From: an uncultured delta proteobacterium
Lineage (GTDB): Bacteria; Desulfobacterota; Binatia; HRBIN30
NCBI GenBank assembly: GCA_963729835.1
Contig: CAVSQF010000039.1
Coordinates: 514,801 to 578,800 of the forward strand
Direction: 5' to 3'
DNA: 64,000 nt
Position 1 is the first letter of the stretch. Every line of letters begins with the position of its first letter. Under the pieces are notes generated by a model that saw only the letters and a list, made by a program, of their open reading frames with translations, did not search any database and had not been told where the DNA came from. A program made the position numbers and the translations under genes. Positions 11,654 through 47,325 of the stretch are shown here, one piece after another.

Positions 11654-11712
11654 GGAATCCCGCCACCGCCGACAAAGCACAAAGCAGCGCCTTCGCCGCC
11701 TTCCGAGCCCCC

Positions 11713-11752
11713 AAAACACGAACGGGGCGCCCTAGGGCACCCCGTTCGTTCC
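11713..11752 (-). terminator. Intrinsic terminator hairpin between convergent gshB and the secreted-paralog operon
   Basis: Minus-sense AACGAACGGGGUGCCCUAGGGCGCCCCGUUCGUGUUUUGGGGG: a GC-rich stem followed by UUUU. Confidence 0.6.
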
Positions 11753-11770
11753 CGTCACAAGTACACTCCG

Positions 11771-30188: not shown

Positions 30189-31451
30189 ATGGAACACAGA
30201 GGCTCAATGGCGTTTCCTTGGCGGCGTGTTCCGTTCGAACACGCGTGCTCGGACACGACGGGCGGTCAGATGAAGGTCCAGAAGCGCGACTATCTCACCG
30301 ACGGCCCTCTGCCGGTAGTCGACCAAGGGCAACAACCTGTCGCAGGATACACGGATGCATTGGATGCAGCCTATCGCGGCCCACTGCCTGTTGTGCTTTT
30401 TGGAGATCACACACGCGTGTTCAAGTACGTGGATTTCCCGTTCGCGCTCGGAGCGGATGGAGTGAAAGTACTCGTCGCGAAGCATCCTTTCCATCCCAAG
30501 TTTCTTTGGTTCTACTTCCGGTCCCTGCAGATCCCGAGCCGCGGGTACAGCCGCCATTTCAAATTCTTGGGCGAGTTTGCGGTGCCGCTTGTGGCTCCAT
30601 CCGAGCAGCGGCGCATCGTGGAGATCCTCGACCAGGCCGAGGCGCTGCGGAAGCTGCGCGCCGCGGCCGACGCCAAGGCCGAGCGCATCCTGCCCGCGCT
30701 CTTCTACAAAATGTTCGGCGACCCGGCGACGAACCCGATGGTGTGGCCAATCTCGAAGCTTGGCGACCCCGACATTACATTGGAGTTCCGCTACGGAACA
30801 TCGAGCAAGTGTGAGCCCGAACCGCAGGGATTGCCCGTCTTGAGAATACCGAACGTGTTGAAGGGGGAGATCGACTTGGCTGATCTGAAGTATGCAGATC
30901 TATCGGGAGCTGAAGTCGAGCGCCTGCTCTTGGCGCGAGGGGATCTGCTCTTCGTGAGGACGAACGGAAACCGGGAGTATGTGGGCCGCTGCGCGGTCTT
31001 TGATCTTCCCAAGCCTTTCTTGTTCGCTTCCTACCTTATCCGCGCACGGCTGAACGCCTCGAAGGTTGACCCTTGGTACGTGGCCGCGTTTCTTCGGAGC
31101 CCGGTGGGCCGCCAGCATATGTCACCGGTGATTCGAACCACGGCCGGTCAGTCGAACATCAGCGTCGAAGGACTGAGCAACATCGAGATACTTGTGCCCC
31201 CAATTGAACATCAGCATCGATTTCGGTCGCTGACCCAGGAACTGCTTAGACTTCGGCGCCAACGTGAGTCCGCAGCGGCAGCACTACAGACCGCGTTCGA
31301 AACGCTGCTTCATCGTACATTCTCCGGCGACCTGACGGCCAAGTGGCGCGAGGCGCACATGCAGGAGCTGCTGGCGGAGATGGAGGGGCAGGCGAAGGCT
31401 CTAGCCGGAGCAAATCCCGACACGGCTGTCGAGCGCGGGGCTCTCGTATGA
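30189..31451 (+). CDS. hsdS: Type I R-M specificity subunit HsdS (two target-recognition domains, intact)
   Basis: 420 aa with two TRDs separated by a conserved central region and a C-terminal coiled-coil repeat (LRKLRAAADAKAERILPALFYKMFG ... LLRLRRQRESAAAALQTAFETLLHRTF). Confidence 0.8.
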   Translation: MEHRGSMAFPWRRVPFEHACSDTTGGQMKVQKRDYLTDGPLPVVDQGQQPVAGYTDALDAAYRGPLPVVLFGDHTRVFKYVDFPFALGADGVKVLVAKHPFHPKFLWFYFRSLQIPSRGYSRHFKFLGEFAVPLVAPSEQRRIVEILDQAEALRKLRAAADAKAERILPALFYKMFGDPATNPMVWPISKLGDPDITLEFRYGTSSKCEPEPQGLPVLRIPNVLKGEIDLADLKYADLSGAEVERLLLARGDLLFVRTNGNREYVGRCAVFDLPKPFLFASYLIRARLNASKVDPWYVAAFLRSPVGRQHMSPVIRTTAGQSNISVEGLSNIEILVPPIEHQHRFRSLTQELLRLRRQRESAAAALQTAFETLLHRTFSGDLTAKWREAHMQELLAEMEGQAKALAGANPDTAVERGALV

Positions 31452-33116: not shown

Positions 33117-34016
33117 ATGCTGCACCTCGTTTACTTTGCGCCCGAGAATCTGTCCGATCCCGTCGTTCTGAGTGATGCTGGCGCCGGTCTCCTGATCAGC
33201 GTGCTGCGCTCACTCCTCCAGAACTGCCTCCTGCTTGATTTCACCGACTACCGCTTTGACGACCGCGTCGCCGTGGAAGTGGAAACGCTGCCGCATGAGC
33301 TCAGAAAGATGGTCAAGGTGCTGCTCGCGCAGTTCAAGAAAGCAAATCGAATCATCCGGGCACTGAAGGACGACTACGCCGGCTCCACCGAATTGCACCT
33401 GGCAGCCGAGCAGGCGGCGCAACTCGGCCTGGAATTGGTGATCATCCGTGCCGACACCGAATGGGACCCGCAGGCGACCCGAGTGCCGCGGGCCTCGCTC
33501 ACCGGCTACCCGATGACGGACTTCGAAGCCGTTCGCTCACAAGGTGTTGCAGACCGGCATTACAGTGATGATGGGATACCGGCGACCCAGTTCATCGAAG
33601 TGTATATCGTTCCGTTCGTGCGATTCGCCGAACGGCTCGACCTCATCGATGGCTCACTGGGAGAGAACTACCGGGACGACTACGGGCATACCCTGGATTG
33701 CCTCTTCGCGGCGCTTGGCAGGTCATGCCACTGGAAGGAACGTGTGCAGGTCACGATCCACTGCTGCCGGGGTGCGGGTAACAAACCCGATCACGTGCGC
33801 GACACGGTGCTTGAGTTGACAAAGAAGCACGGGCTCGACGGTCATGCGCAGACCTATTTCTACGGCGACCCCGGCCAGCCGTTCAGGTTCAAGCACGACC
33901 GTTGCCTCGCATCTGAATTTGGGAGTCCTGAACATCGGCCGTGGCTTCGACTTCGTCCAGAAGGCGGACGGCAAGCTCAAGAATACAATCATCGGTTTCG
34001 GCGGACCAGACGCTGA
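33117..34016 (+). CDS. Hypothetical 299-aa protein, predicted partner of the upstream ATPase
   Basis: Intact ORF 8 nt after the ATPase stop. No recognisable motifs: no obvious TOPRIM E...DxD, HNH or HEPN Rx4-6H signatures were found. Confidence 0.4.
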   Translation: MLHLVYFAPENLSDPVVLSDAGAGLLISVLRSLLQNCLLLDFTDYRFDDRVAVEVETLPHELRKMVKVLLAQFKKANRIIRALKDDYAGSTELHLAAEQAAQLGLELVIIRADTEWDPQATRVPRASLTGYPMTDFEAVRSQGVADRHYSDDGIPATQFIEVYIVPFVRFAERLDLIDGSLGENYRDDYGHTLDCLFAALGRSCHWKERVQVTIHCCRGAGNKPDHVRDTVLELTKKHGLDGHAQTYFYGDPGQPFRFKHDRCLASEFGSPEHRPWLRLRPEGGRQAQEYNHRFRRTRR

Positions 34017-34137: not shown

Positions 34138-34518
34138 GTGATCGGAAAGGCCGCCTGCAAGGCGCGGCGTGAGGGCACGCCGGCTCCAGAATTCGTGTTC
34201 TTTCTGGCGCCCAGCCTGCGTATTGCGGAACCTATACTCGCGTGTTACCCGCTGGGCTTCTCTGCGCGCGCGCAGCATGCGCTCTTCAACTTCATCGCTG
34301 CCGGCGCGGTGGCCATCACCGACTTTGGCGCCGCGGACGTCTCTCGTGCCGCGGCGCTGATGCAGCGCTTCGCCAATCTGCCGATGGATTTTGCGGATGC
34401 CACCCTGGTCGTCCTCGCCGAGCGCCTGCACGCGACCACCGTGTTCACACTCGACCGCCGCGACTTCACCGTCTACCGGGTCGGCCGGCGCACCCTTCGC
34501 CTACTCCCTAAAGGCTGA
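34138..34518 (+). CDS. PIN-like (VapC-family) protein with substituted first catalytic Asp
   Basis: C-terminal half matches VapC (MDFADATLVVLAERLHATTVFTLDRRDFTVYR). The N-terminal strand reads FFLAPSL instead of the canonical LDTS. Confidence 0.35.
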   Translation: MIGKAACKARREGTPAPEFVFFLAPSLRIAEPILACYPLGFSARAQHALFNFIAAGAVAITDFGAADVSRAAALMQRFANLPMDFADATLVVLAERLHATTVFTLDRRDFTVYRVGRRTLRLLPKG

Positions 34519-34542
34519 CCCAGGCCGTGTCGCCGTCGTGGC

Positions 34543-34950
34543 TCACGCGGGGCGCACCCGCTCGATCTTGAGCTTCGAGTGCCGTGCGAGGACATCGTAA
34601 TCGCGATCATTGTGCAGCAGCGACGCCCGCTCACGGATCGCCACGGCCGCGATCAAGCAGTCGATCAGCTTGCGCACCGTGTCCCCCTTGCGGCGACAGG
34701 TGCGATACAGCTCCGCCGCACCTTCGAAGTCGGGCAGCCCCCGGAGGCGCAGGCGCGGCAGGCCGAGTAGCAGGACACGCATGCGGGCGTGATCGGCGCC
34801 CGTCCTCGCGCCGGCGAGCACCTCCATGATCACCACCTCGGTCGTCGCGATCGGGGCACACGCTTGCAACAGGTGCCTGAGAGCCAGGTGCGTCGGGTGA
34901 CCGCTCTTGCGCAGGAACTCGATCCAGGCGGAGGTATCGACGAGAATCAT
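34543..34950 (-). CDS. vapC: Type II toxin VapC (PIN domain)
   Basis: MILVDTSAWIEFLR... is the canonical PIN N-terminus, and acidic residues are conserved. Confidence 0.85.
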   Translation of the reverse strand: MILVDTSAWIEFLRKSGHPTHLALRHLLQACAPIATTEVVIMEVLAGARTGADHARMRVLLLGLPRLRLRGLPDFEGAAELYRTCRRKGDTVRKLIDCLIAAVAIRERASLLHNDRDYDVLARHSKLKIERVRPA

Positions 34951-35246
34951 CGTCCGCCGCGCGCGCGCCGCAGCTCGGCCAGGTTCCCCTCCCAGCCAGC
35001 TCCCTCCAACTGCAACAGCTCCTCGTACAGGTCAATCTCCTTCAGGCGCCCCGTTCGCTTCGCCCACTCCTCGATCTCAGGCCAGTCCCACGCCGGTTGT
35101 CCGGACACCGTCCACCGTGGCAGCGGGAGCAACCCCCGTTGACGCCAGGTATGGACGGTCTGGGCCTTCACGCCCAAGCGGGAGGCGATCTCGGCAGCCC
35201 CGACGGGGATCGATTCCGGCACCGGCGCAGCCGCAGTAGAGGGCAT
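34947..35246 (-). CDS. vapB: Antitoxin with an N-terminal HTH (excisionase/AlpA-like); cognate VapB-type partner
   Basis: 99 aa. Has a 4-nt overlap with vapC and an HTH-like segment (AAEIASRLGVKAQTVHTWRQRG). Confidence 0.55.
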   Translation of the reverse strand: MPSTAAAPVPESIPVGAAEIASRLGVKAQTVHTWRQRGLLPLPRWTVSGQPAWDWPEIEEWAKRTGRLKEIDLYEELLQLEGAGWEGNLAELRRARGGR

Positions 35247-35300: not shown

Positions 35301-36071
35301 CTACGGCGCGCCGGTTCCCGGACGGCGCAGCGCCTCGACTTTCGCAATCAGGTTGTGACAATCGCCGATGGAGCGGCCACTGATTCTCGCGCACGCCAAT
35401 TCGCGGTGCAGCGGCGCGGAGCCGGAAACCTGCCCATCAGCCGTAACCTCACCGATGCCCGGGACGAGCACCATCGCGCTGCTGAGCTCGATGATGCCTT
35501 CCGGCGTGTGCACGGAGCGTACGGTCCGGACGGAGACCGCAGCGCGGAAATCACCGAGGGCGGTATGCACCGCGGCGGCGGCACTGACACGGACAACCTG
35601 TGTTACCTGCACAGAGCCGGTGCGCTGATTGTCGCTGAGCCGCGTCACCTCCGCGGTCGCCGCGCCGTGGCGCTCACCGGGCACCAGCGGCATCTCCAGT
35701 TGCGACAAGGGTGGATCATAGCGCAAGCGCTCGCCCGGCCCGAAGTCCTCGCTGAGCAGCAGCAACGCATGACCGTCGTCACGGAAGTGCGTACGAGCAA
35801 CTGCCACGCCATCCTCACTTGTAGTGACCTCAAATTCTCCTTCCGGGCCCGCCGCCGTGACGCGCTCGACGTGGATGCCGGCATTCACGTCTCCGCTCTC
35901 GCCAGCCCGCCACCACAGGTACACCAGATGATCGCCATCGGCGTGCGGCACCAGCTCCTGCAACGAGGTTGCAAGCGGTTTCGGTCCTGCCAGCCGCAGC
36001 ATCGAGCAGGCGGTGACGCCGAGGAGGGCACACAGCCAGACGGCACGATGGCGGGAAGTCAGTGTCACCAT
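35301..36071 (-). CDS. Hypothetical lipoprotein
   Basis: Signal peptide with lipobox LLGVTAC. 256 aa with no recognised domain. Confidence 0.45.
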   Translation of the reverse strand: MVTLTSRHRAVWLCALLGVTACSMLRLAGPKPLATSLQELVPHADGDHLVYLWWRAGESGDVNAGIHVERVTAAGPEGEFEVTTSEDGVAVARTHFRDDGHALLLLSEDFGPGERLRYDPPLSQLEMPLVPGERHGAATAEVTRLSDNQRTGSVQVTQVVRVSAAAAVHTALGDFRAAVSVRTVRSVHTPEGIIELSSAMVLVPGIGEVTADGQVSGSAPLHRELACARISGRSIGDCHNLIAKVEALRRPGTGAP

Positions 36072-36126: not shown

Positions 36127-38763
36127 TCACGTTTTCGTCCTTTCCTTTTCTGGCCGGGGTTTCTGCGCGCTGAATGGTTGGCGTGCGACAGTCTCTTCCG
36201 CAGGTCTGATCAGTCTACCCAGGTCGGCCCGGAGCTTGGCCGCGAAGTGAGCCACCAGGCTGGCATCAGCCATGGCCATGTCCAGTTGGCGGGTGTGTAT
36301 GATCAGGTGGCCTAGGGCTCGCACGCTCTCCAAGGCCTCGGCATCACTCAAGTGGTCCCGGCGCGCCCGTATGGCATCGGCACGGATGACCGCCGCGAAA
36401 CCCAACTCCTCCAGCAGTTCGGCCATGAGGTGAAGGCGGGTCTGCTTGCGGGCCATGTCGGCCCCGCCGCCTTGGAAGGCGAACAGCACAAAATCTTCCT
36501 CTGGGTCGGGACCGGCCAAGACTTCCACCGCAGCAAAGTGCGCTCCCAGCCGCGATTGCAAGTTCATGAAGTCGCGCCCCACCAGGAAGTAGTTGCCTTC
36601 TTCCCAACCGGCACGGGTCTCCAGTTCCGGCCGCATGGTGGACTGCACGATGACCGAAGTCAGCCCGGAGCCGGTGATCGGCGGCCCATCCCAGGGCACA
36701 GCCAGCATGCCCTCCCACAGGGCCAGCCATGGCCGACTGGCGATCTGCTCGACGCGCACATACTTGCCGCTCACCTCTTCCGTGAAGCCGCCGCCGATGT
36801 CGATGAGCCGCCACTGCATAGGTGCGTTGCAGTAGAGCCTCTTGGCTGCAGCGACCGGAAACTTCTTCCCGCCCAGGCTGAAGATCTCGCGCACCGCCTG
36901 CTCATGGCAGAAACGGGTTAGATCATGCAGGGTGCGACAACTCGCCACATTGAACTCTGGGGAAGATGGGTCCGGGAGGTTCAGCGGTACGGCCAATGCG
37001 ATGAGCTGCTCGAGGCTGCGCCGGATAGGGGTCTGCGGTGCCGGCGGCGCCGGCCGGGCTCTCAGCAGGCCCTCCACGCGGCCGGGATAGATAGCTCGGC
37101 GGTCCGCATCCACTGTGATCACCTTCCCTTGCCTCGAGCCGTTTCAAATCCGGCCCCACGTCCAGAAGCGCCGGCACCCTAAACTCTCGCGCCACGGTGG
37201 CTAAATGGCCCGCCAGCCCGCCGTGGCCCGCAACCAAGGCCTCAGCCCGGCTCAAGAGAGGGGCCCAACGTGGCAGCGGCCGCTCTACAACCAGCACCTG
37301 GCCGGCCTCGAAGAGCATGGCGTCACGCCCGGTACGCACCCAGTGCACCACCCCAGCGGCTGCCCCAGGTGCGGCCCCGAGCCCAGCGCTGATGATCGGA
37401 TCAGGCAGCCCCTCCACCAGCGGCTGGGCGGCCGCTGCAGCTTGACGGTGGAGCGGCCGACATTGCAGGTAAACCAGCTGCCCTCCCCTATCCAGTGCCC
37501 ACTCCAAGTCCTGCGGCCCCCCGAATGCCATCTCCACCTCTTTAGCACAGGCAGCTAGTTCCTTGGCCAGGTCATCGCTGAGCGGACTTGTGTTTCTTAG
37601 CCCCTTTGGTAGCTCAGCCGACAGCACCCCGCTGGAAGGGTCGCACTGGTAGTAGCGGTCCTGGCTGCCGGCGCGGCGCTGCAGGACTCCGCTTTCGGTG
37701 TCCACCACGATCTCCACGGCCTCTGCCGAGCCGTCCACCACGCCCTTGGGCAGGCCCCAGCAGGCGCTGATGTACACCCTGCCGTCGGCCGGGTCCAAGG
37801 GTGAGGCACTGTACACCACCCCTCCAGCTCGGGCCGGAAGCATCACCAGGCAGCCCGCTGCCATGGCTAGGTCCTGGTCTCTCAGACCATGGTGGCCATA
37901 GTAACTAAGGGCCTGCGGGCCGTAAGCGCTGGCAACGACCTCGCGATAGGCCTCGCACAGTGCGGCGGGCGTTACGTTCAACTCGGTGTGAAACTGACCG
38001 GCAAAGGAAGCCGCGCCCACGTCCTCTCCCAAAGCGCTGGAACGCACCGCAAGCTTCAACTCGGGACCGTGGCGCTGGAGCAGCCGTTGGCAGGCGGCCG
38101 CCATTTCCTGTTCCAACTCCGGGGGCAACTCGCCCTCGATGAAGAGCCGCTGCAAAGCGGAACAGGCGGCAAACAGCTCGTCGACCCCGCTCAGACTCTT
38201 GATCTGCAGCAGCCGGTTGATTTCGGCGCGCAGGTCGTTGTGCTCCACGAAGCGGGCGTAGGCCACGGTGGTGATCACGAACCCGTCGGGCACCGTCAGC
38301 CCCAGCCGGTTGCCCAGTTGTGCCAGTGTGGCCATCTTGGGGCCGGCCAGGTCATCAGCCCCTACGCCAAGCTCACCCAACTCAACCACAAGGGGCCGTG
38401 GGGCAACGGCCGCGCCCCGGCGACCTGCTCGTCCAGCTCCCGCTTCAGCGCCGTGAAGCGCTCCATCAGCGCGGTGTAGCGTCCCGGTGCTAGCTTCTGC
38501 AGTTCCTGGATCATGGCCAACACGCTCACCGCCATTTCGGTAGCCGCCGAACGCAGGCGCGCCATGGTGACGGGCTCCGGACTCTGCTGAGCCTCTTGGA
38601 GTTCGGCCATGATGGTCAACGCCCGGCTGTTGGCCTTGAGCAGGTTGCGGTAGCCCAGGAACCGCCCCGCGAGACGAGTGCGTAGCTCGGCCAGCACCGC
38701 CTGATCCTGCGCACCAGACCGGCCGCGGAACAGGGACTTGATCAGGGTGCCCCAGCCGCCCAT
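36127..38763 (-). pseudogene. Swivel-histidine dikinase-like protein (N-helical + PPDK_N/ATP-grasp + PEP-utilizers mobile His + novel C-terminal domain), paralog A; two frameshifts
   Basis: ORFs 38362..38763 (helical N-terminal domain, homologous to the paralog B N-terminus), 36923..38389 (PPDK_N-like domain and swivel motif GGLAGHLATVAREFRVPAL) and 36127..37122 (C-terminal domain) are collinear with the intact paralog B. Lesions lie near 38375 and 37123 (EG/KVITVDADRR). Confidence 0.6.
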
Positions 38764-38790
38764 CGGGTACCTCCGGCCCCGGGGCCGAGC

Positions 38791-39183
38791 TTAGGAGGGG
38801 ACCCGGCGCATTAGCTGTGCGCGCTCCCGGGCGTCCCGGATGCGCTCGATCAAGTCGTCCAACTTGACCGGCTTGATCAGGTAATCAAAGGCCCCCAACT
38901 CCACCCCCTCTACGCCGGATCCCACCGAGGCGTGGCCGGTGAGGAGGATCACCTCCACATTGGGGTCGCGGTCCTTGATGGCCTTGAGGGTCACGATGCC
39001 GTCCATGTCTGGCATCTTCACGTCGAGCACTACCACCTCAGCTGGGTTTTCGGCCAACATCTTCAAGGCATCCATGCCGCTGGTAGCCCCGTGGGCATCC
39101 AGCCCCCGACGTTGAAGCCGCCGCACCAGCGACTCCAGAAAGTCGCGCTCGTCGTCCACGATTAGCACTTTGCACTGGCTCAT
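38791..39183 (-). CDS. Stand-alone response-regulator receiver domain (CheY-like)
   Basis: 130 aa with VLIVDDE...D...LDVKMPDMDG...K, the canonical REC residues. Confidence 0.9.
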   Translation of the reverse strand: MSQCKVLIVDDERDFLESLVRRLQRRGLDAHGATSGMDALKMLAENPAEVVVLDVKMPDMDGIVTLKAIKDRDPNVEVILLTGHASVGSGVEGVELGAFDYLIKPVKLDDLIERIRDARERAQLMRRVPS

Positions 39184-39205
39184 TGCTGTTCTCCTTCCGT
39201 CCCCA

Positions 39206-40828
39206 TCAGCCCCTCTCTGGCTCCGCGATGGGCAGGCTGGCGATGAAAGTGGCTCCTTGAGCCGGTGGGCTCTCGAAGGTCAGCGTACCGCCCATCTTCT
39301 CCATGATGGAGTGGCTTATGGAAAGCCCCAGCCCCGTGCCTTGCCCCAGCGCCTTTGTGGTGAAAAAGGGATCGAAAACCCGTTCGCCTACGTCGGGTGG
39401 CACCCCCGGTCCGCTGTCGGTCACCCGCACCTGCACGAAGTGACCGTCACGGGTGGTAGTGATCACCAACTTTCCGCCTTGGCTGGCAGCGTCGAGTGCG
39501 TTGTTGAGCAGGTTCAGCAGCACCTGCTGGAGTTGGGCACGGTCGGCTGGGATGAGCGGCAGGCTGGAGTCCAACTTGAGCTCGACTGTGAGGTTTTGGT
39601 AGCGTGCTTCTTTCTCCACAAAGGAGAGGGACTCTTTCACCACCTGATTGATATCCAGCTTCTCGAGCGTGGGCTCCATGTGGCGGGCAAACTTGAGCAT
39701 GCGGTGCGTCACATCCCTGGCCCGTTCCACCTGTCCCAGTATCTTACCAAGGTTGTCCCGGCAGAGATCGCCTTCCGGCAGCTGCGCCAGGATCTCGGGA
39801 CGCAGGATATCCTCGAGCTCGCCAGCCAGCTCACCGATGGCGGCCAACGGGTTGTTGATCTCATGCGCCACGCCGGCGGCCATGCGGCCCAAGGACACCA
39901 ACCGGGCCGAGTGCGCCACTTGAGCGTCGAGGGCGGCACGCTCACGGTCGTTGGCCTGAAGCTGTTTAATGAACAGCCGCACCAGTAACAGCACCGAGGC
40001 AATGATGAGGAGGTTGGCCACCCACACGATGGCCATATCCACACGCCTGGCCTGGTTCAGGGGGCCCGGCATCTCCTGAGGGTCCTGGTCTACCACCAAC
40101 AGCCAAGGGATGCTCGACAGCCACGTAAACGCCGTGAACAGCGTGCGCCCATCCGGACCCACCCGTTCCACGACCGTGTTGCCAGGTGGCACCGCCCCAA
40201 CATCGAACTTGGCGGACGTGAGGATTCCCCCGGCAAAGCGGCTAGGGGTTTGCAACTGTCCCCGCGAGTTGACGATATAGGCGTCGCCACTGAGGCCGAC
40301 CTGGGCGCTGCGCACCAGGCGGTTGAAGACCTCCGAGTCGATCGTGGCCCGCAGGATCCAGGGTTCGCCTTCGTCCTCGTGTTTCACCGCGATGACGAAA
40401 TGGGGCACGTTGCGCACGCCGAGAAATACATCGCTGATGTACACTCCCCGAAGCATGACCTGGTGAAACCACTCCGCGTCGCGGTAGTTCTGGTGCTGCA
40501 GGGGATAGGGCCCCACATAGGAAGCGTGGTTGCCCGAGGCGTCGATGACTCCCAGGTCCAGGAAGCTTCGAGTGCGGCGGTTGAGCATCTGGAAGGTTTT
40601 GTTCAACTCGCGCTGGTCACCGAGCTGGGCCAGTTGAGCGGAATGGGCCAATGCTTCCAGCACAGCGGTACGCTCAGCCAAAAAGAGATCAATGGCCTCG
40701 GCGCGGGCGACCGCCCGCACGATCATCTCTTCCTTGAGCTTTTCCTGGTTGGCACGAAGGAAGTAGTAGTAGATCCCGACCCCTAGGACGTTTAAAGGCA
40801 CAAGGGCCACCACTAGGCTGACCAGGGT
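39206..40828 (-). CDS. Sensor histidine kinase (periplasmic sensor domain, HisKA, HATPase_c)
   Basis: Two TM segments flank a periplasmic region of about 280 aa. H-box LAAGVAHEINNPL. N-box, G1 and G2 (DSGPGVPPD...GTGLGLS). The start is chosen at MTLVSLVV to limit overlap with the upstream gene; the track ORF begins at 40933. Confidence 0.8.
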   Translation of the reverse strand, partial: TLVSLVVALVPLNVLGVGIYYYFLRANQEKLKEEMIVRAVARAEAIDLFLAERTAVLEALAHSAQLAQLGDQRELNKTFQMLNRRTRSFLDLGVIDASGNHASYVGPYPLQHQNYRDAEWFHQVMLRGVYISDVFLGVRNVPHFVIAVKHEDEGEPWILRATIDSEVFNRLVRSAQVGLSGDAYIVNSRGQLQTPSRFAGGILTSAKFDVGAVPPGNTVVERVGPDGRTLFTAFTWLSSIPWLLVVDQDPQEMPGPLNQARRVDMAIVWVANLLIIASVLLLVRLFIKQLQANDRERAALDAQVAHSARLVSLGRMAAGVAHEINNPLAAIGELAGELEDILRPEILAQLPEGDLCRDNLGKILGQVERARDVTHRMLKFARHMEPTLEKLDINQVVKESLSFVEKEARYQNLTVELKLDSSLPLIPADRAQLQQVLLNLLNNALDAASQGGKLVITTTRDGHFVQVRVTDSGPGVPPDVGERVFDPFFTTKALGQGTGLGLSISHSIMEKMGGTLTFESPPAQGATFIASLPIAEPERG

Positions 40829-40860
40829 CATGCGCCGAGCAAGCTGCGCGTAGACCTTGA

Positions 40861-43455
40861 TCACGAAGCCGACCCCACGGTTGGCAAGGTGGTGAGATTG
40901 TAGTCGCCCCGGCTGAAGGCCTGAGCCAGCCATTCCACCATGTGCGGCCCGTCCATGAGCATGTCCAACTGGCGGCTGAAGAGCACGAGTCGTCCTATTT
41001 CCTCGAGAATGCGCGTGATCTCCTCCGGCGCACGCTTTTTCAGGAAGGCGCTGACTGCGTCGCCGGTGCGCTCGGCGTTGAAGCCCAGGTCGCCGAGGAT
41101 GCGCTGCACCAGCACCGCCCTGAGCAAGCGGCGGTCCTCGGTGGCCGCCCCGCCGTGGAAGCGGAAGCTCACGTAGTTGTCGTTCAACCGCTGCCCACAG
41201 TAGCAGTCCAGGGCCGTAAAGTGGTAACCCACCCGGCAGTTGAAGTTGATGTAGTCGGCGCTGAGGATGGCGTAGGCTCGCCCGCCCATGCTGCGCTGGC
41301 CGGCGTCCTGCGGCGGGGTCAAGAGCGACGCGCTGAGGACCGAGGCGAGGCCCTTCAGGCTCACCGGCCGCGGAGCACTCCAGTCGATGCGCTGGTCGGT
41401 AAGCCCCTTCAGGAAAGCTGCACCCGGCCGGGACTGCACGGCCTCGACCCCGGGGCTTTCCCCCGCCTCAGCACGCAGCCCGCCACCCAAGTCGATGATC
41501 CACAAATCAAAGGGCAGCTTGACCTGCAAGCGGCGGGCTGCTCCCGCTGCCTTCTGCCCCACTTGGTCGCCCAGGCGGAACATTTCATTGAAGGACATCT
41601 CATGCATGAACCGGATGAGGTCGTGAAAGCTGCTGCAGTTCTCCGGACGGAACTCCGGGGCCTTGGGGTCAGTGAGATTCAGCCGGGTGATGAGTTGAAC
41701 CGCCCTGAGCCTCAAGGGCAGTGCCCGTACCCGGCTGGCGACGGCCTGGGTGGTGATCTTGTGGTCGAGCAATGCATCCACCCGGCCGCCGTAAACTCTG
41801 CGGTTGCTGGCGTCCAGAGTCACCTCCAGACCAGGCGTGAGCTTTTCCAATGCCCCGGCCACACCCACCAGCGTCGGCACTCCATACTCCCGGGCGAGGG
41901 CCGCTAGGTGTCCGGCCACCCCACCCACCTCAGTTATCAGCGCCGTAGCCGCGGGCAGCAACGCCGCTAGAGCTGGCGAGGACTCACGAGCCACCAGTAT
42001 CGCGCCGGTGGGGAAGTCGGCCATGTCGTCGATCCCGCGCACGAGATGCACGGGGCCGCAAGCGGTGCCCGGCCGCGCCGTCTGCCCGCCGCTCAGAATT
42101 AATGGCGCGCTTACCCTCACCCGGGTGGGGCTGGCCGAATCCTGCACCACCCGCAAAGGCCGAGCCTGCAGTATACACAGGCGCCCCTGGCCGTCCCGTG
42201 CCCACTCCACATCTAGGGCCTCGCCTAGGATGTGTTCTAGACGTAAGCCGACCACCGCCAGTTCTTGAATGGCTTCGGCCGGCAGCACCTGCTGACGGGC
42301 CTGCTCGGGATCCAGCTTCCGGCGTTCTGTCCCTTGCGGCCCGACCACCAGCATGTAATCCCTTCGGCCCACGTGGCGCACGCTGTAGCCAGCGTCGGGA
42401 CCCCGATCCGCCGTGTAAACGTCCGCGTCCAGCGATCCGTCCACCAGCCCTAGTCCAAGACCCGGTACCGCGCTGATGACAGCCGGTCCCTTGCCGCCGG
42501 CCAGGGGGTCGGTGGTGTAGAGCACCCCGCTGACCGCCGACTCGACCATGACCTGCACCAGTACGGCCATCTCGGCATCCAAGTCCGAAAGTCCTTCCCG
42601 TTCGCGGTAGGCCAGGGCCTGCGCGGAATACAGGGAGGCGAGCACCGCGAGATACGCGTGGGGTGCGTCGTCTGGGCGCACCCCCAGTCGACTCTCGTAG
42701 AGTCCGGCGAAGGAAGTGTGGGTGTCCTCACCGAGAGCACTAGAACGGAGCGACAAAGCGGCCCCGCCCTGGGCGCTGCTTAGAGCGCGGCACCGTTCCA
42801 GCATTTCTTTCTCTAGGTCCGCCGGAAGCTTGATCGTAGCGAATTCGGCCTGCAAGCGACGTGAACGTTCTTCCCGTGCGGCCAGGTCGCCCCCCTCTGC
42901 CAGCATGGCCACCTGCCGTAGCCGCCCCCCGAGCCCGGTCTCGGCCATTACTCGGCGGAATGCCTCGGTCGTAATGACCAGACCCTCCGGCACCGGCAGC
43001 CCCTCCCGGCGCAGAGTGGCCAGGTTGCTGGCCTTCGCCCCGGTTAGATGCTCCATACCCGGCTCTACGGCCTCCAGGGGCAAAAAGCTCGATCCAGCGG
43101 CGGCGTCCGCCTGGATGGCTAACAGTGCATCGATCTGGTGGCGTACCTCGTTGAAGGGTGCCAACAGAGACTGGTAGCGGTCGCCGGAGATGAGGTTCAG
43201 GTGGCGGATCATCAGAAAGACCTTGGCGCTGGCGGCAATATAGCGAGAGCGCAAAAAGTCCACCCCCAACACGCCGCTCCGCTCCAGGACACTCTGGATC
43301 TCGGCGATGATCTCCAGCACCTCGTTGTTGGCCCTGAGCAGGTACTGGAACTCCTTGAAGCGCAGTTTGAGCTGGACAAAGCCCTGACCTGGCTCCCGCG
43401 AGGAACCACGCAGGTTGCGCCAAGCTCTGGTGAAGCGGTTGGTCACAACCGTCAC
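40861..43455 (-). CDS. Swivel-histidine dikinase-like protein, paralog B (intact, 864 aa)
   Basis: A PPDK_N/ATP-grasp-like region, the PEP-utilizers mobile domain (EVGGVAGHLAALAREYGVPTLVG) and a C-terminal ~300 aa domain (YVSFRFHGGAATEDRRLL...). That C-terminal domain lacks the TIM-barrel PEP-binding motifs of genuine PEP synthase/PPDK. Confidence 0.75.
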   Translation of the reverse strand: MTVVTNRFTRAWRNLRGSSREPGQGFVQLKLRFKEFQYLLRANNEVLEIIAEIQSVLERSGVLGVDFLRSRYIAASAKVFLMIRHLNLISGDRYQSLLAPFNEVRHQIDALLAIQADAAAGSSFLPLEAVEPGMEHLTGAKASNLATLRREGLPVPEGLVITTEAFRRVMAETGLGGRLRQVAMLAEGGDLAAREERSRRLQAEFATIKLPADLEKEMLERCRALSSAQGGAALSLRSSALGEDTHTSFAGLYESRLGVRPDDAPHAYLAVLASLYSAQALAYREREGLSDLDAEMAVLVQVMVESAVSGVLYTTDPLAGGKGPAVISAVPGLGLGLVDGSLDADVYTADRGPDAGYSVRHVGRRDYMLVVGPQGTERRKLDPEQARQQVLPAEAIQELAVVGLRLEHILGEALDVEWARDGQGRLCILQARPLRVVQDSASPTRVRVSAPLILSGGQTARPGTACGPVHLVRGIDDMADFPTGAILVARESSPALAALLPAATALITEVGGVAGHLAALAREYGVPTLVGVAGALEKLTPGLEVTLDASNRRVYGGRVDALLDHKITTQAVASRVRALPLRLRAVQLITRLNLTDPKAPEFRPENCSSFHDLIRFMHEMSFNEMFRLGDQVGQKAAGAARRLQVKLPFDLWIIDLGGGLRAEAGESPGVEAVQSRPGAAFLKGLTDQRIDWSAPRPVSLKGLASVLSASLLTPPQDAGQRSMGGRAYAILSADYINFNCRVGYHFTALDCYCGQRLNDNYVSFRFHGGAATEDRRLLRAVLVQRILGDLGFNAERTGDAVSAFLKKRAPEEITRILEEIGRLVLFSRQLDMLMDGPHMVEWLAQAFSRGDYNLTTLPTVGSAS

Positions 43456-43467
43456 CCTCCCGCGTTC

Positions 43468-43755
43468 TCAGCCTTGGCGGTTTGGGCCGAGGTCGGAGAC
43501 GCCTTCGAGGGCGCCGAAAAGCCCCACCGGCCGGCAAAGCCGCTCCCCCGGTGTGGCGGGACACTCGGGGGCGAAGCGCCTGAGCGCCCAGCGGGCAAGC
43601 AGCACCGTGACGAGCGCGGCGGGTACGAACACCTGGCTGAAGCGCCAGGCGATTTCGGCAGGCTGGAAGTGGCTCCACCAGATACCCAACGTCAGCTCGG
43701 CTAGAAGCAGTATGTCCATACTCGCCACAATGGCCAGTTTCCAAAAGTTCATCTC
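43468..43755 (-). CDS. Small membrane protein (2 TM)
   Basis: MNFWKLAIVASMDILLLAELTLGIWW...VPAALVTVLLARWAL. Confidence 0.35.
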   Translation of the reverse strand, partial: EMNFWKLAIVASMDILLLAELTLGIWWSHFQPAEIAWRFSQVFVPAALVTVLLARWALRRFAPECPATPGERLCRPVGLFGALEGVSDLGPNRQG

Positions 43756-43809
43756 TATGTCTCCTCCAGGCTCAGCGGGTCGGTCTCCGAGATGGCGGGC
43801 CAACTCTGG

Positions 43810-44010
43810 CTACTGCTTGCGGAGGTCTTGCTTGGTGACGTTCATGACCTTCAGGGCCAGGAAAGAGTTGCCCTGGACCTTGTAAGCCACTCGGATAACG
43901 TCCCCAGGGTCGGGGCTGAGCCCCACCTTCGCTTCGGCCACATTGAACACCGCCGTCTCTCCATGGATGGGGTTCAATTCCGGCTGAGTGTTTTTCAGCT
44001 CTAGGGTCAA
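43810..44010 (-). CDS. Hypothetical small protein
   Basis: 66 aa ORF with coding-like GC3. Its start codon lies inside the IS left inverted repeat. Confidence 0.25.
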   Translation of the reverse strand: MTLELKNTQPELNPIHGETAVFNVAEAKVGLSPDPGDVIRVAYKVQGNSFLALKVMNVTKQDLRKQ

Positions 44011-44020
44011 TGCCAGTAAC

Positions 44021-45367
44021 TTAAGGCCATCGGGGCAGTGGACCGCGGTTGGGCGGAGCCTTTTTGGCGTAGTTGCTCATTTTGATTTTGACTGCTCGCG
44101 CATAGCGACGAGGCCGGCGTTTGGGCAAGACCAGGAGCGCGATTTGTTCATGCAAGGCCGCCAGGCGCTTGGGTAGTACACCAGGACTGGCCAGCCACGC
44201 GCTGACGAGGAAGTTGCGTACGAGCATGAGTGAGTGGCGAAAGCTGATGCGCGCCGGGGGCAGTTTCAGCCGGGTAGCCACTTGGAGCATTTCGAGCCGC
44301 ACCAGATTGTAAGCAATGGCGAGTCCCCAGAGCTCTTGCAGCACTCGTTGTGGGGACTTGCTGCGCAGGGTTTCGAGACGTTCCAGGGCGTGAGTCTTTA
44401 CTTCGTCGAACCCGATCTCGAGCTCCCAGCGTTCGTGGTAGAGGTGGACGATCTCGGAGGCCGGGTAGGTGTTGGGATCGAGCAGAGAGGTCAGCAATAC
44501 CTGCGGGCGAAAGCCGCGGCGCTGGTAGCGAATGGCACGGGCAGTGAGGCACTCGGGCAACTCGGGGTGCTGCTTGCGCAGGGAGCGATTGATGCGAATC
44601 TGCACGAGATCGTCGTGGGGGCCAAGCCGGCGTACGACCTGCCACTTCAGATTGCGTTTGCTGCGACAGAGCCAGTGCCGCTCGGTGCCCTGGCTCTGGA
44701 TGGAGTAGAAGACGAAGTAATTGATGAACCCCTTGTCGACCACGGTGACACAGTGGTCGGGCAGACGGTTCCAGAGTTCCTGAGCCAGCGTTTGCTCGCC
44801 GGTGTGGTAGGAGCCCGGAACGATGTCCGCCAGCAGATGAGCCCGCAGCACCATCAGGGCGACCAGCCGGAGCTGCGGATAGGCCCCCGCACTGCGGCCA
44901 TTACATGGGCGGCCGAACACGAGCTCGTTGTCGGCCGTGTCCGCGATCAACATCGTGGTGCCATCCACCCCGTAGACGGCCAGCCCCCGCCACCGCAGCG
45001 CGGCGGCAGCCGTCCCCGCCCAGCGTTGTGCGGTTTCGCCAAACAGCACGGCCAGTGGTTCACAGCCCAGCCGATCCCGGGCCCGCACGACGGCAGTCCG
45101 GCTGACCTCGTCGTCTTCCTTGATCTCCGGCAGGACCAGATCGAGGTGCTGGACGACTTCGTCAATGCAGCGGTCGCGCAGCAGCGCCATGCCGAGCACC
45201 AGCCAGACGACCAACTCCGCGGGCAGTTTGCGCTTGCGCACACTGGCCGTGCCGGTAGCGGTCAACACCCGTCTGACCCACGCCAGGTCCAGGGTGCGGC
45301 TGAACAGCGCAAAACTCTCACTGCGATTTCCTTCTCCGAGCACCTGCAGGGCCTCTGCCAGCTCCAT
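44021..45367 (-). CDS. IS4-family DDE transposase
   Basis: 448 aa with a DDE_Tnp_1 pattern (…VYGVDGTTM…, …VVDKGF…, …YHERWELEIGFDEVK…). Confidence 0.85.
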   Translation of the reverse strand: MELAEALQVLGEGNRSESFALFSRTLDLAWVRRVLTATGTASVRKRKLPAELVVWLVLGMALLRDRCIDEVVQHLDLVLPEIKEDDEVSRTAVVRARDRLGCEPLAVLFGETAQRWAGTAAAALRWRGLAVYGVDGTTMLIADTADNELVFGRPCNGRSAGAYPQLRLVALMVLRAHLLADIVPGSYHTGEQTLAQELWNRLPDHCVTVVDKGFINYFVFYSIQSQGTERHWLCRSKRNLKWQVVRRLGPHDDLVQIRINRSLRKQHPELPECLTARAIRYQRRGFRPQVLLTSLLDPNTYPASEIVHLYHERWELEIGFDEVKTHALERLETLRSKSPQRVLQELWGLAIAYNLVRLEMLQVATRLKLPPARISFRHSLMLVRNFLVSAWLASPGVLPKRLAALHEQIALLVLPKRRPRRYARAVKIKMSNYAKKAPPNRGPLPRWP

Positions 45368-45695
45368 CCTCCTCCCCTCCTCCTCTTGCCCGTCGGTGCC
45401 GCAGCAGATCGCGATTGACGGCCGCTACCTGCTCAAGAATCTCCCAGCACCGCCGATAGACCGCCATGCCGTGGCGCACCGTGGCCACCAGCTCGCGTGG
45501 TACCGAGATCTGTTCGGTGCGTCCCCCACGATGGGTGACACTCAGATAGACCGCGCGGTGCAGCGCCCCGTCCACACAGCGACAGCTTTGCTTGCCGCAG
45601 CGCACCGAACGCTCCACCAGACTGCCGCGCAAGATCTCGTCGAGCGGAGGCAACCTCGCCAGTAGCCGCTGGCGGCGCTTCACAAGCCGATCCAT
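45318..45695 (-). CDS. IS-associated small ORF with a Cys-rich (CGKQSCRC) segment
   Basis: 125 aa lying inside the IS boundaries upstream of the transposase, overlapping its start by ~50 nt. Confidence 0.35.
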   Translation of the reverse strand: MDRLVKRRQRLLARLPPLDEILRGSLVERSVRCGKQSCRCVDGALHRAVYLSVTHRGGRTEQISVPRELVATVRHGMAVYRRCWEILEQVAAVNRDLLRHRRARGGGEEDGAGRGPAGARRRKSQ

Positions 45696-45798
45696 GCCTT
45701 ACGGTCTTATAACCGAAAGACACTCGATAGTCAAAGCCTCGTTCTTCCGTTGCGCGCTTCAACTCAGCGCAAGTGATTGCCGTGCCGGCAGAAACGCC

Positions 45799-45945
45799 TT
45801 AAGTTACTGGCATTGGCTCTAGGGTGTGGTCGGCCGGACTGAATCGCAAGCACTTGCCCTGGTAGACGTAACTCTTGGTCTCGTTGCGGCAACCCAGGAC
45901 GGACATGACCGATACCACCAGCATCAGGGTAAGTAGTCTTTTCAT
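45799..45945 (-). CDS. Putative small lipoprotein (48 aa); 3' end and stop supplied by the IS right IR
   Basis: MKRLLTLMLVVSVMSVLGC... is a signal peptide with a lipobox. The ORF terminates at a TAA inside IRR. Confidence 0.3.
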   Translation of the reverse strand: MKRLLTLMLVVSVMSVLGCRNETKSYVYQGKCLRFSPADHTLEPMPVT

Positions 45946-45962
45946 CTAGACGCCTCCATTTA

Positions 45963-47000
45963 TCAGGCCGCGTTGGCAATGCTGTTGGCGCGCTTCTCGC
46001 GCAGCTCCTGGGCTGCACCCACGAACATGATCTTCATGATGTAAATGCAGATGGCGGTGATGGCTCCTAGAATGATCACCGTGGCCGCAGCGTTGAAGCC
46101 GAACTGTTTCAAGATGATGGAGATCATGCAGGCCACCACCGCGCAGCCAAAGAGCAGGCGGATGCCGTAGCCCTTGGTATACTTGGTGGCCACCGTACCG
46201 ATCTGCGCTCCGATAGCCGCACCGCAGAGCATCACAAAAACCGCCACCAGCTCGATCCGGCCCTTCAAGCTATACGTAAATGCGCCGTAAAGGCCGCTCA
46301 TCATCACCTCGAACAGGTCGGTACCCACCGCCACATGGGTAGGCACGCCAACGAAGTAGACCAGCGACGGCATGCGCAGGAGACCGCCGCCGATGCCCAG
46401 GAAGCCGGCCATCACGCCCGTGAGGAAAGCGATCAGCACCGGCAGCCACATCGAGCAGTAGATGCCGGCAACCTCGAAGTGGACCATGGGCGGAATCTTG
46501 ATCCTGTGCAGGGCGGGAGCCCAGTTCACGCCGCCAGTGGCGCCGGTGTGGCTGGGGTCGTCGCTCTTCCTTTTGCTGCGTACAGCCTTGCCGTAATCAT
46601 AGAAGACCATCAGCGCAATGAGCGACAGGAACACCACGTAGGTCCAGCGTACCACCGGACCAACCTGGCCGATGCGTTCCAGGGCCATGACAATCCGCGC
46701 GCCCAGTTCGATGCCAAACATGGTACCGATGACCATGATGAAGCCCAGCTTGTAGTCCACGTTGCCGAACTTGGAGTGGCGCATCGTAGAAATCATCGAT
46801 TTGCCCGCGACGTGGGCTATGTCCGTACCAATGGCGAACGCCATGGGAAAGCCGAGGATGTTGAGACCCGGCGTCACCATCCAAGCGCCCCCCATGCCGA
46901 AGAAGCCGCCGATAACCCCTACCGAGTAGCCGATCAGAAGCAGACCCGGCCAGAAAATATCCACGCCCGCAATGGGCATGTGCATGTACATCCATTCCAT
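45963..47000 (-). CDS. TSUP-family (TauE/SafE, DUF81) sulfite/anion exporter
   Basis: 345 aa with duplicated 4-TM repeats and GxGGG motifs (GGFFGMGGAWM; GFLGIGGGLL). Confidence 0.8.
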   Translation of the reverse strand: MEWMYMHMPIAGVDIFWPGLLLIGYSVGVIGGFFGMGGAWMVTPGLNILGFPMAFAIGTDIAHVAGKSMISTMRHSKFGNVDYKLGFIMVIGTMFGIELGARIVMALERIGQVGPVVRWTYVVFLSLIALMVFYDYGKAVRSKRKSDDPSHTGATGGVNWAPALHRIKIPPMVHFEVAGIYCSMWLPVLIAFLTGVMAGFLGIGGGLLRMPSLVYFVGVPTHVAVGTDLFEVMMSGLYGAFTYSLKGRIELVAVFVMLCGAAIGAQIGTVATKYTKGYGIRLLFGCAVVACMISIILKQFGFNAAATVIILGAITAICIYIMKIMFVGAAQELREKRANSIANAA

Positions 47001-47031
47001 AGTTTCCGCTCCTTGCCCCCTGACACGTAGA

Positions 47032-47325
47032 CTAGCGCTCCACGTGCCCGCCGCCCTTGGTCAGATCCAATCCGACCCGGCTCATGATCACGTCCATCAA
47101 CACCCCCAAACTCCCCCCGAGCAGCGCAGTGAACACCACTGCCCAGATGGCAAACATCCATGGGTCCTCGTTGTAGATACTTGCCAGGTAGAGACTGAAC
47201 CCGCTGAGGACACGGGTGTCGGCCACCACTACCAGATCGCCGCCCCCTTCCGCGGCGTGCGCCAATCCGGGCAGCAGAGCCCCCAGCGCTCCCGCCAAGG
47301 CTCCGATTTTGATACCCCCTGTCAT
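47032..47325 (-). CDS. DUF1634-like small membrane protein (commonly paired with TauE/SafE)
   Basis: 97 aa with 2 TM. Located immediately upstream in the same operon. Confidence 0.5.
   Translation of the reverse strand: MTGGIKIGALAGALGALLPGLAHAAEGGGDLVVVADTRVLSGFSLYLASIYNEDPWMFAIWAVVFTALLGGSLGVLMDVIMSRVGLDLTKGGGHVER

Follow-up and report, generated by a model that had tools for sequence, protein, structure and literature searches.

An operon of about 11 kb on the minus strand of a 64,000-nucleotide (nt) stretch of DNA from an uncultured delta proteobacterium (contig CAVSQF010000039.1; the whole stretch is called the window below) encodes two large paralogous dikinases, A and B, each with a swivel phosphohistidine domain. 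Their genes, with those of a dCache histidine kinase and a single-domain receiver, make up the distal part of the operon (window 36127-47325), whose order is DVU0150-family protein, TauE-family permease, lipoprotein (split), protein with two transmembrane (TM) segments, dikinase B, dCache kinase, receiver and dikinase A. Paralogues of ancient origin, A and B belong to a large uncharacterized clade of dikinases of the phosphoenolpyruvate (PEP) synthase type, whose members have a new α/β domain of ~300 amino acids (aa) in place of the PEP/pyruvate TIM barrel and an additional, N-terminal helical bundle. The family is not explained by any curated family: the class of enzyme is known, the third domain is new. 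The most likely role is that of a two-component-controlled dikinase at a TauE-type anion permease.

Domain architecture of the dikinases

The initial annotation had described two paralogous dikinase-like proteins that flank a histidine kinase and a stand-alone receiver, and this arrangement is confirmed, with all genes on the minus strand. Over ~710 aa the two dikinases share 35-38% identity (E = 3e-85), far beyond chance. Dikinase B consists of a helical N-domain (residues 1-120), an ATP-grasp domain (137-441; PPDK_N, PF01326, E = 6e-67), a swivel domain (481-551; PEP-utilizers, PF00391, E = 1.5e-17) that holds His516 in the motif GGVAGHLAALAREYGVP, and a C-domain (~570-864); residues 1-125 and ~560-864 match no family in Pfam or NCBIfam. 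Dikinase A has the same four-domain architecture. PF01326 matches residues 13-322 of the middle piece of its interrupted reading frame (E = 3e-76), and the nucleotide-site and swivel-histidine motifs are retained once the frame is repaired. The N-terminal helical domain, PPDK_N/ATP-grasp region and swivel histidine, which the annotation had assigned to both proteins, are borne out by Pfam and by AlphaFold2 (AF2) models.

Across 55 aligned sequences the invariant residues (dikinase B numbering) include the swivel H516 as well as K141, R237, E417, Q430 and R432, positions that bind the nucleotide in PPDK. Judged from sequence, the catalytic apparatus of a dikinase is intact. The N-domain is a helical bundle of ~120 aa in the full-length AF2 model (pLDDT 85.7). 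An HPt-like phosphohistidine bundle was considered for it and rejected, the 55-sequence alignment having no conserved histidine in this domain. A subclade of longer proteins (P0054, P0060 and P0185, about 1,050-1,075 aa) carries an extra β-rich extension of ~200 aa after the C-domain, which has no Pfam match and is jelly-roll or lectin-like by eye; the genes of this subclade adjoin ChrB, MFS, HD and ChrA genes rather than TauE.

A new C-terminal domain

The ~300 C-terminal residues had been described as lacking the TIM barrel, and every search made here agrees. The C-domain has no Pfam match in 36/36 family members, even at E ≤ 10, and no NCBIfam match; its profile finds nothing among PDB sequences (best E = 0.7). 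The AF2 model of the domain (pLDDT 82.5) is of mixed α/β structure, with helices and an antiparallel sheet with hairpins, and is not a TIM barrel; Foldseek finds no match to it in the PDB at E ≤ 0.001. Kinship with DHHA1-like domains (RecJ, the C-Ala domain of AlaRS, PAP phosphatase) was suggested by weak and inconsistent Foldseek matches (TM-score ~0.2, E ≥ 0.03) and homology was rejected. A circular permutation of the domain order was also rejected: a hidden Markov model (HMM) of the C-domain detects no PPDK_N protein of the ~720-aa or rifampin phosphotransferase (RPH)-like kind at E ≤ 10. Those ~720-aa/RPH-like proteins lie in unrelated contexts, beside PNPOx, and are therefore regarded as a different family.

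Within the C-domain, H611, D612, R615, H618, H745, G769, R779 and D831 are invariant in the 55 sequences, and two loops, IDLGGG and FxFxGGAAxxxRR, are conserved. Taken together, the invariant polar residues and the loops resemble an active site or a site of anion binding more than they do a docking surface.

Comparison with known dikinases

PEP synthase (PpsA; pyruvate, water dikinase; 2OLS, 8A8E, 9DAE) is arranged like the window dikinases in having an ATP-grasp domain (PPDK_N), a central swivel phosphohistidine domain and a third domain. It shares with them the nucleotide-site residues and the catalytic histidine, and it gives the best partial sequence matches. These NCBIfam matches span the ATP-grasp and swivel domains and reach 256.5 bits against a cut-off of 598 (TIGR01418) and 250 against 739.75 (NF005057), less than half of the curated values. 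The third domain of PEP synthase is the PEP-utilizers_C (PF02896) TIM barrel, whereas the window dikinases lack that barrel according to Pfam, a profile search of the PDB and the predicted fold, possess the extra N-terminal bundle of ~120 aa and sit in a context of transport and signalling. A part in ordinary central metabolism, as a divergent PEP synthase or PPDK that interconverts pyruvate and PEP, would suit the best partial NCBIfam and PDB sequence matches and the source annotations 'pyruvate, water dikinase'; the scores, the missing barrel and a neighbourhood that is not one of gluconeogenesis largely refute it, and we give it next to no credence. The match to PPDK itself is weaker still (TIGR01828, 45 bits against 843). 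The sequence and fold matches in the PDB, to PpsA (2OLS, 8A8E), RPH (5HV1), HpeI (9GOJ) and PPDK, cover the first two catalytic domains only.

The architecture had initially been considered closer to RPH, which does not hold: the swivel domain occupies the middle of the protein, where PEP synthase has it too, the rifampin-binding domain PF27448 is absent and the best partial NCBIfam match is to PEP synthase. RPH (5HV1, 5FBS) resembles the window dikinases as a three-domain dikinase for an acceptor other than pyruvate, and it is the closest full-length match in Foldseek (E = 3e-22). Its order is ATP-grasp, rifampin-binding domain and C-terminal swivel, in contrast to the central swivel (481-551 of 864) of dikinase B. 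In precomputed Pfam assignments the full-length family members list only PF00391 and PF01326, whereas the RPH-like matches carry PF27448. An RPH-type kinase that inactivates a xenobiotic or antibiotic, with the sensor and permease for detection and efflux, would be in keeping with the top Foldseek matches and with the 208 bits that the ATP-grasp domain scores against NF041857 (cut-off 999; ATP-grasp only). The match to NF000283 is 144 bits against 1700, the C-domain HMM detects no RPH-like protein, and the domain order and missing PF27448 tell against such a kinase. So do the concentration of the family in strict anaerobes with oxyanion-type transporters (TauE, SulP, ChrA) and the co-occurrence of two ancient paralogues, which would be unusual for a resistance gene. 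We regard this alternative as highly unlikely.

The split dikinases of the phenol type (phenylphosphate synthase; HpeHI, 9GOJ, PMC12167813) belong to the same superfamily, and HpeI, the ATP-grasp subunit, is among the Foldseek matches. They illustrate how swivel-histidine chemistry has been reused for new small-molecule acceptors, but they consist of separate subunits and act in aromatic catabolism. Between their substrate-binding parts and the C-domain no relation in sequence came to light, although no search was aimed at one. Enzyme I of the phosphotransferase system (PTS) has the same swivel-histidine domain, matched weakly (21 bits against 824, in the swivel segment only), and donates phosphate to a relay of proteins that is coupled to a membrane permease, which makes it the nearest functional analogy for the ATP-driven PTS-like system considered below. 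It differs in being charged by PEP through a TIM barrel, in its HPr-binding helical insert and in having no ATP-grasp domain; in Pfam the window dikinases have no PEP-utilisers_N, PEP-utilizers_C or other domain specific to Enzyme I. Taken by their sequences, A and B would work like dikinases with the domain order of PEP synthase, and they fall outside PEP synthase, PPDK, RPH and Enzyme I as these are defined.

Family size and conserved gene neighbourhood

The C-domain profile matches 1,656 clusters at 50% identity (842 at E ≤ 1e-30), and in almost all of these the domain lies at ~560-860 of proteins of ~850-890 aa. A query of the A type retrieves 2,901 proteins at E ≤ 1e-50. A scan of GTDB genomes, made with a 10-sequence alignment, finds at least 475 loci of the dikinase family in species representatives. 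The taxa include Desulfarculaceae, Desulfobacterales, Syntrophobacterales, Desulfovibrionales, Acidobacteriota, Nitrospirota, Planctomycetota and Sumerlaeota, and among the cultured hosts are Desulfosarcina variabilis, Desulfovibrio aminophilus, Desulfoglaeba alkanexedens and Fundidesulfovibrio magnetotacticus. In databases the proteins are named 'hypothetical', 'PEP/pyruvate-binding domain-containing' or 'pyruvate, water dikinase'.

Synteny was assessed in the 80 best-scoring of the at least 475 loci, of which 43 have at least 5 kb on both sides and form the well-flanked set. A TauE gene lies within 8 kb of the dikinase in 38 of these 43 and a DVU0150-family gene in 37; 34 have a sensor or regulator as direct neighbour, and 12 have a second dikinase-family copy within 8 kb. 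The strongest association, an operon or supra-operon with the DVU0150-family, TauE and small envelope proteins (38/43 well-flanked loci), had been missed by the initial annotation. The synteny that it did propose, dikinase-kinase-receiver-dikinase, stands as far as the two-component linkage is concerned, which is kept down to ~30% identity and across orders; the exact order is typical only of a Desulfarculaceae-like clade. The exact gene order of the window recurs at 83% and at 56% identity and in many Desulfarculaceae-like loci. Among sulphate reducers, operons of this type are widespread.

A and B co-occur in several orders. A single-domain receiver lies immediately upstream of an A-type dikinase, on the same strand, in 13 loci, and the B-type dikinase adjoins either a dCache kinase (downstream) or a membrane-bound dCache/HAMP sigma-54 activator (upstream). 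Two gene pairs are conserved across orders: dikinase A goes with the receiver, and dikinase B with a dCache sensor, which may be a kinase or a sigma-54 activator. More distant loci (~30-37% identity) retain much the same partners in other arrangements: TauE-dikinase-...-dikinase-kinase-receiver-CBS-SulP/STAS-dikinase in L008, TauE-Alph_Pro_TM-Usp...kinase-receiver-dikinase in L093 and Usp-TauE-Alph_Pro_TM-dikinase-receiver in L094, where Usp denotes universal stress protein. Among other distant loci, L006 has a hybrid kinase beside a single dikinase, and L007 and L095 read MFS-HD-MFS-dikinase, followed by ChrA (L007) or a dual-specificity phosphatase (DSP) gene (L095).

A second type of module has an N-terminally extended TauE, a membrane protein of ~246 aa, sometimes a universal stress protein, and then receiver and A-type dikinase (L027 15745-18665; L063 16278-20818; L082 3974-7688). 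Usp genes recur in 21 loci and a 271-aa protein of unknown function in 26. In L096 (8001-11375; proteins P0066 and P0070) Alph_Pro_TM (PF09608) is fused to the N-terminus of the dikinase, in a gene directly after TauE, and a kinase-receiver-dikinase triple lies near this fusion gene. Alph_Pro_TM is a separate gene between TauE and dikinase in L093, L094 and L065. The fusion argues that the dikinase acts at the permease complex.

The histidine kinase and the receiver

The bracketed kinase and receiver are as first described, a histidine kinase with a large periplasmic sensor and a receiver with no other domain. The open reading frame (ORF) listed for the kinase runs from 39206 to 40933, and the likely start is the GTG at 40864, which overlaps the stop codon of dikinase B as GTGA. 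Pfam assigns dCache_1 (64-281), HisKA (348-418) and HATPase_c (464-570), with the periplasmic dCache_1 domain between two TM segments. The translation contains AHEINNPL, NNALDA, DSGPGV and GTGLGL, so that the H-box histidine and the N, G1 and G2 boxes are present.

The receiver consists of the receiver domain only (PF00072, 6-116 of 130 aa) and lacks a DNA-binding or enzymatic output domain. Its motifs are VDDE, LDVKMPDMDG, LLTGH and YLIKP, and the acidic pair (DD), D54, T82 and K104 can all be read directly from the sequence. Single-domain receivers are the rule in the family, accounting for 75 of the 90 receiver ORFs that lie within 2.6 kb of a dikinase-family gene. Dikinase-adjacent receivers are closer to the window receiver than are distant ones (median 98 versus 67 bits).

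Relation to two Desulfovibrio gene clusters

D. aminophilus (locus L091) has a B-type dikinase and a sigma-54 activator on one side and, divergently, the series DVU0150 - TauE - 112 aa - 81 aa - 271 aa - receiver - A-type dikinase. In D. vulgaris, DVU0150-DVU0146 encode unknown lipoproteins and membrane proteins and DVU0145 a response regulator; the DVU0150-DVU0145 cluster is up in syntrophic co-culture and down on return to sulphate respiration (PMC4265775). The divergent activator DVU0151 is predicted to control a DVU0150-0146 operon (PMC4641369). The D. vulgaris cluster, matched by way of the L091 layout and the text of these papers, is alike in its module, which joins a DVU0150-family protein and TauE to small lipoprotein and membrane proteins and a lone receiver. 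The D. aminophilus module runs on into the A-type dikinase and is divergent from the dCache/HAMP sigma-54 activator and B-type dikinase, whereas the window clade has a dCache histidine kinase in place of the activator and both dikinases within one operon.

The second cluster is the 'nitrate cluster' of D. vulgaris (DVU0251-DVU0245) and strain G20 (Dde_0597-0605), which transposon fitness data define as one functional unit for nitrate resistance (PMC4001038). Korte et al. obtained nitrate resistance from hits in the TauE-like permease (DVU0251/Dde_0598), the single-domain receiver (DVU0247/Dde_0603) and the PPDK_N/swivel 'dikinase' (DVU0246/Dde_0604), and suggested a leaky thiosulphate transporter (PMC4001038). 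The cluster resembles the window operon in combining TauE-like permease, histidine kinase, single-domain receiver and PPDK_N/swivel dikinase; it differs in an extra PtxB-like binding protein and a DSP phosphatase, and DVU0246 is annotated as 744 aa (PMC4001038). Literature searches on DVU0152, DVU0144, Dde_0695-0699 and 'phosphoenolpyruvate synthase-related protein' found nothing. A DUF169 gene lies near the D. aminophilus cluster (L091 14205-14981), and in G20 the nitrate cluster begins with a DUF169 gene (Dde_0597, PMC4001038); its presence in both places may be a coincidence.

Proposed mechanism and alternatives

The reading that we prefer, tentatively and as a possibility rather than a probability, combines a small anionic acceptor tied to the cargo of the permease, a dikinase at a membrane complex and a receiver that regulates the dikinase by binding. 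From the established chemistry of the dikinase family, the ATP-grasp domain would transfer the β,γ-pyrophosphoryl group of ATP to the swivel histidine (His516 in B); the γ-phosphate would be released as inorganic phosphate, and the histidine would keep the β-phosphate while AMP is freed. The swivel domain would then carry the phosphohistidine to the C-domain, where a pocket of invariant His, Asp and Arg residues and Gly-rich loops would hold the acceptor. The polar, Gly-rich conservation of the C-domain, the association with transporters and the Alph_Pro_TM fusion together suggest that this acceptor is a small anionic compound, either the cargo of the TauE-type permease or derived from it, and that the enzyme works at the permease. 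The dCache kinase would sense an extracytoplasmic ligand and phosphorylate the lone receiver, which in its phosphorylated form would bind and tune dikinase A and possibly B; direct binding is proposed because the receiver is paired with the A-type gene and has no output domain.

Several points weigh against this reading. The invariant residues of the C-domain could serve catalysis on a protein side chain instead of a small molecule. The synteny percentages come from the 80 best-scoring loci and may not hold family-wide, and the membership of DVU0246, DVU0144 and DVU0152 in the dikinase family is a lead, not a result. The remaining points, a receiver-dikinase pair without a kinase and the phosphatases found beside dikinases, each bear on an alternative.

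D. aminophilus L091 has the receiver-dikinase A pair and no histidine kinase within 20 kb, which fits phosphorylation of the receiver by the dikinase at least as well as allosteric control. The dikinase would in that case be an ATP-grasp-driven 'histidine kinase' whose swivel phosphohistidine passes its phosphate to Asp54 of the receiver, so that intracellular energy and dCache signals are integrated. Such a phosphorelay would also be in line with the receiver immediately upstream of the A-type gene in 13 loci, with the closer subfamily formed by dikinase-adjacent receivers and with the full set of residues needed for phosphorylation in the receiver sequence. To our knowledge, however, transfer from a swivel histidine to an aspartate is without precedent, and receivers catalyse their own phosphorylation, so that seven invariant His, Asp and Arg residues would be superfluous in a domain that served only for docking. 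The B-type dikinase often has no adjacent receiver and stands beside a receiver-less sigma-54 activator instead, and the association with TauE and the Alph_Pro_TM fusion would be left unexplained. We consider the phosphorelay unlikely.

In Fundidesulfovibrio magnetotacticus (L095) a gene for a dual-specificity/protein tyrosine phosphatase (PTP)-type phosphatase (11368-11871) follows that of a 1,059-aa dikinase variant. A DSP phosphatase paired with a dikinase recalls plant glucan water dikinase and SEX4. Relatives of the family phosphorylate phenolic or alcoholic hydroxyls, for example RPH, phenylphosphate synthase, HpeHI and glucan water dikinase (paired with the DSP phosphatase SEX4). The enzyme might be a regulatory protein kinase that turns transport on by modifying a side-chain hydroxyl, either in a cytoplasmic part of the permease complex or in another protein, with dual-specificity phosphatases to reverse it; the Alph_Pro_TM fusion would tether it to the membrane complex. 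In the nitrate cluster, mutants in dikinase, receiver and TauE share one phenotype, and the mutant in the DSP phosphatase DVU0245 has the opposite one (PMC4001038). With the L095 phosphatase, this is a pattern typical of reversible regulatory phosphorylation. Against such a kinase, phosphatase adjacency is seen in only 1 of ~95 loci, the place of DVU0246 in the family is only the lead mentioned above, and the small membrane partners vary (lipoprotein/two-TM protein, 271-aa protein, Alph_Pro_TM, 246-aa protein), so that no conserved target is evident besides TauE. A protein kinase therefore seems doubtful to us.

The preferred reading, a receiver-regulated dikinase acting on an anion at the permease, has a bolder variant that we hold to be improbable: dikinase, lone receiver and TauE could form an ATP-driven PTS-like system in which phosphate passes from ATP to the swivel histidine, then (by way of the receiver aspartate) to the cargo or the permease. 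If this were true, phosphoryl transfer at the membrane would energize anion uptake, gate it or render it irreversible, which would be a new coupling of ATP to a secondary-type permease under the control of an extracytoplasmic dCache sensor. It would explain the syntrophy-induced DVU0145-0150 cluster and the shared phenotype of permease, receiver and dikinase in the nitrate cluster.

Swivel-histidine dikinases are a small set of enzymes, and each known type carries out one ATP-costly activation step (on pyruvate, starch, phenol or rifampin). The present family adds to them a branch that is very large and unnamed and counts thousands of proteins among sulphate reducers, syntrophs, Acidobacteriota and Nitrospirota; since its third domain has no recognizable relative, the acceptor is very probably new. 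The linkage to TauE-family permeases, which are poorly understood, to dCache sensors and to receivers without output makes it a testable candidate for the function of two long-unexplained Desulfovibrio clusters, one strongly induced during syntrophic growth with methanogens, the other a site of mutations to nitrate resistance, which is relevant to the control of oil-field souring. The acceptor, once found, would add a reaction to anaerobic anion metabolism or a new link between phosphohistidine enzyme, receiver and transport.

Layout and state of the locus

The window is collinear with the related locus L001 from 47318 to 36203 (blastn), and the sole break is a 1809-bp insertion at 44008-45816 (Table 1). 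The DVU0150-TauE-small envelope gene module was recognized by collinearity with L001 and L003, which carry PF28216 and PF01925. Upstream of the operon lie an acyl-CoA dehydrogenase gene and his genes. A search of the 64,000-nt window reveals no further dikinase-family copy. A scan of the cluster for sigma-70 promoters and terminators gave nothing above shuffled expectation, and no convincing sigma-54 site (-24/-12) was seen by eye ahead of the DVU0150-like gene. The domain of a sigma-54 activator (AAA+) is encoded at 24889-25644 (+), ~11 kb from the cluster.

Table 1. Genes of the dikinase operon and the element inserted in it (window positions).
Feature	Position	Strand	Basis
DVU0150-family small secreted/membrane protein, 97 aa, first gene of cluster	47032..47325	-	phmmer E 3.7e-43 to L001 protein annotated PF28216:DVU0150; blastn collinearity with L001
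TauE/SafE-family (TSUP) anion permease, 345 aa	45963..47000	-	orthologues in L001-L005 are PF01925:TauE; 86% nucleotide identity to L001; phmmer E 7.6e-229
Lipoprotein gene, 5' part, severed by insertion sequence (~102 aa intact)	45826..45941 (approximate)	-	blastn break versus L001
IS4-family insertion sequence, 1809 bp	44008..45816	-	Pfam Nterm_IS4 and DDE_Tnp_1; NF033592; inverted repeats; target duplication
IS4 transposase	44021-45367	-	
DUF6788 ORF within IS4 element	45318-45695	-	
Lipoprotein gene, 3' part	43813..44007 (approximate)	-	phmmer versus L001 lipoprotein, E 1.8e-33; blastn collinearity
Conserved small membrane protein with two TM segments, next upstream of dikinase B	43468..43803	-	homologue: 96-aa gene, L003 9691-9981; most related loci have it in this place
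Dikinase B, 864 aa, intact	40861..43455	-	Pfam, NCBIfam, AF2 models
Sensor histidine kinase, 552 aa from GTG 40864	39206..40864	-	Pfam; 552-aa orthologues in L001-L005
Single-domain receiver, 130 aa, 27 nt upstream of dikinase A	38791..39183	-	Pfam Response_reg 6-116, no other domain
Dikinase A, 878 aa once repaired, interrupted by two 1-nt indels	36127..38763	-	tblastn with B and L001 orthologue; reconstruction

The IS4 element that had been placed directly upstream of the operon is real, but it lies inside the operon, where it splits the lipoprotein gene: the blastn alignment with L001 is interrupted at window 45818/44008, within the L001 gene 9327-9635, and intact relatives of the split gene have a signal peptide and a lipobox cysteine. 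Its transposase scores 237.9 bits against NF033592 (cut-off 115). The terminal inverted repeats are perfect over 20 bp (44008-44027 and 45796-45815), where none is expected by chance, and a target duplication of 9 bp, CTCTAGGGT, is present at 43999-44007 and 45817-45825; L001 has the target site free of the element. The insertion is clean and probably recent, and it is probably polar on dikinase B, kinase, receiver and dikinase A.

Dikinase A is split into three ORF pieces (38763-38362, 38389-36923 and 37122-36127), which follow one another in frames -3 / -2 / -3 when compared with the intact 866-aa orthologue of L001 (75-80% identity). Two frameshifts had been proposed at ~38375 and ~37123; two 1-nt indels are indeed present, and these positions are ORF ends, 10-20 nt off the actual sites. 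One nucleotide is missing from the C run 38392-38395 and one is gained at 37132-37133. Addition of one C to the C4 run and removal of one G at the second site restores an ORF of 878 aa with all motifs. Close orthologues (78-82% identity) are all intact, with 861-866 aa; the protein collection holds no near-identical intact copy, the best match being 82% identical. Programmed frameshifting was considered and rejected, there being two compensating indels 1.26 kb apart and stop codons in the zero frame. The indels are either assembly or sequencing errors or genuine decay, and real decay is plausible because the neighbouring genes (dikinase B, kinase, receiver and the nearby his genes) are all unbroken and an insertion sequence lies in the same operon. 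With that element and the two indels in dikinase A, the locus is probably inactive or decaying in this genome.

Neighbouring genes

The gene that directly follows dikinase A (35301-36071, -) encodes a 256-aa protein whose N-terminus resembles a signal peptide; Pfam, NCBIfam and PADLOC give no match to it, and L001 lacks it at that position. Toxin-antitoxin-like genes occupy 34138-35246: a PIN-domain protein (34543-34950, -) overlaps an upstream ORF of 99 aa (34947-35246, -), and a second, PIN-like C-terminal fragment lies at 34138-34518 (+). L001 has an acyl-CoA dehydrogenase gene where the window has these PIN/toxin-antitoxin-like genes. Further on, an AAA_15/AAA_21/DUF3696 ATPase (31343-33109, +) is followed after 8 nt by a 299-aa protein of no family (33117-34016, +). 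The toxin-antitoxin-like genes, this defence-like ATPase and the insertion sequence suggest a variable, island-like stretch downstream of the operon. The ATPase matches the PADLOC candidate-defence models PDC-M55A, NsnB and HEC-03B (E = 1e-38 to 1e-43), and with the 299-aa gene it is probably a two-gene anti-phage system.

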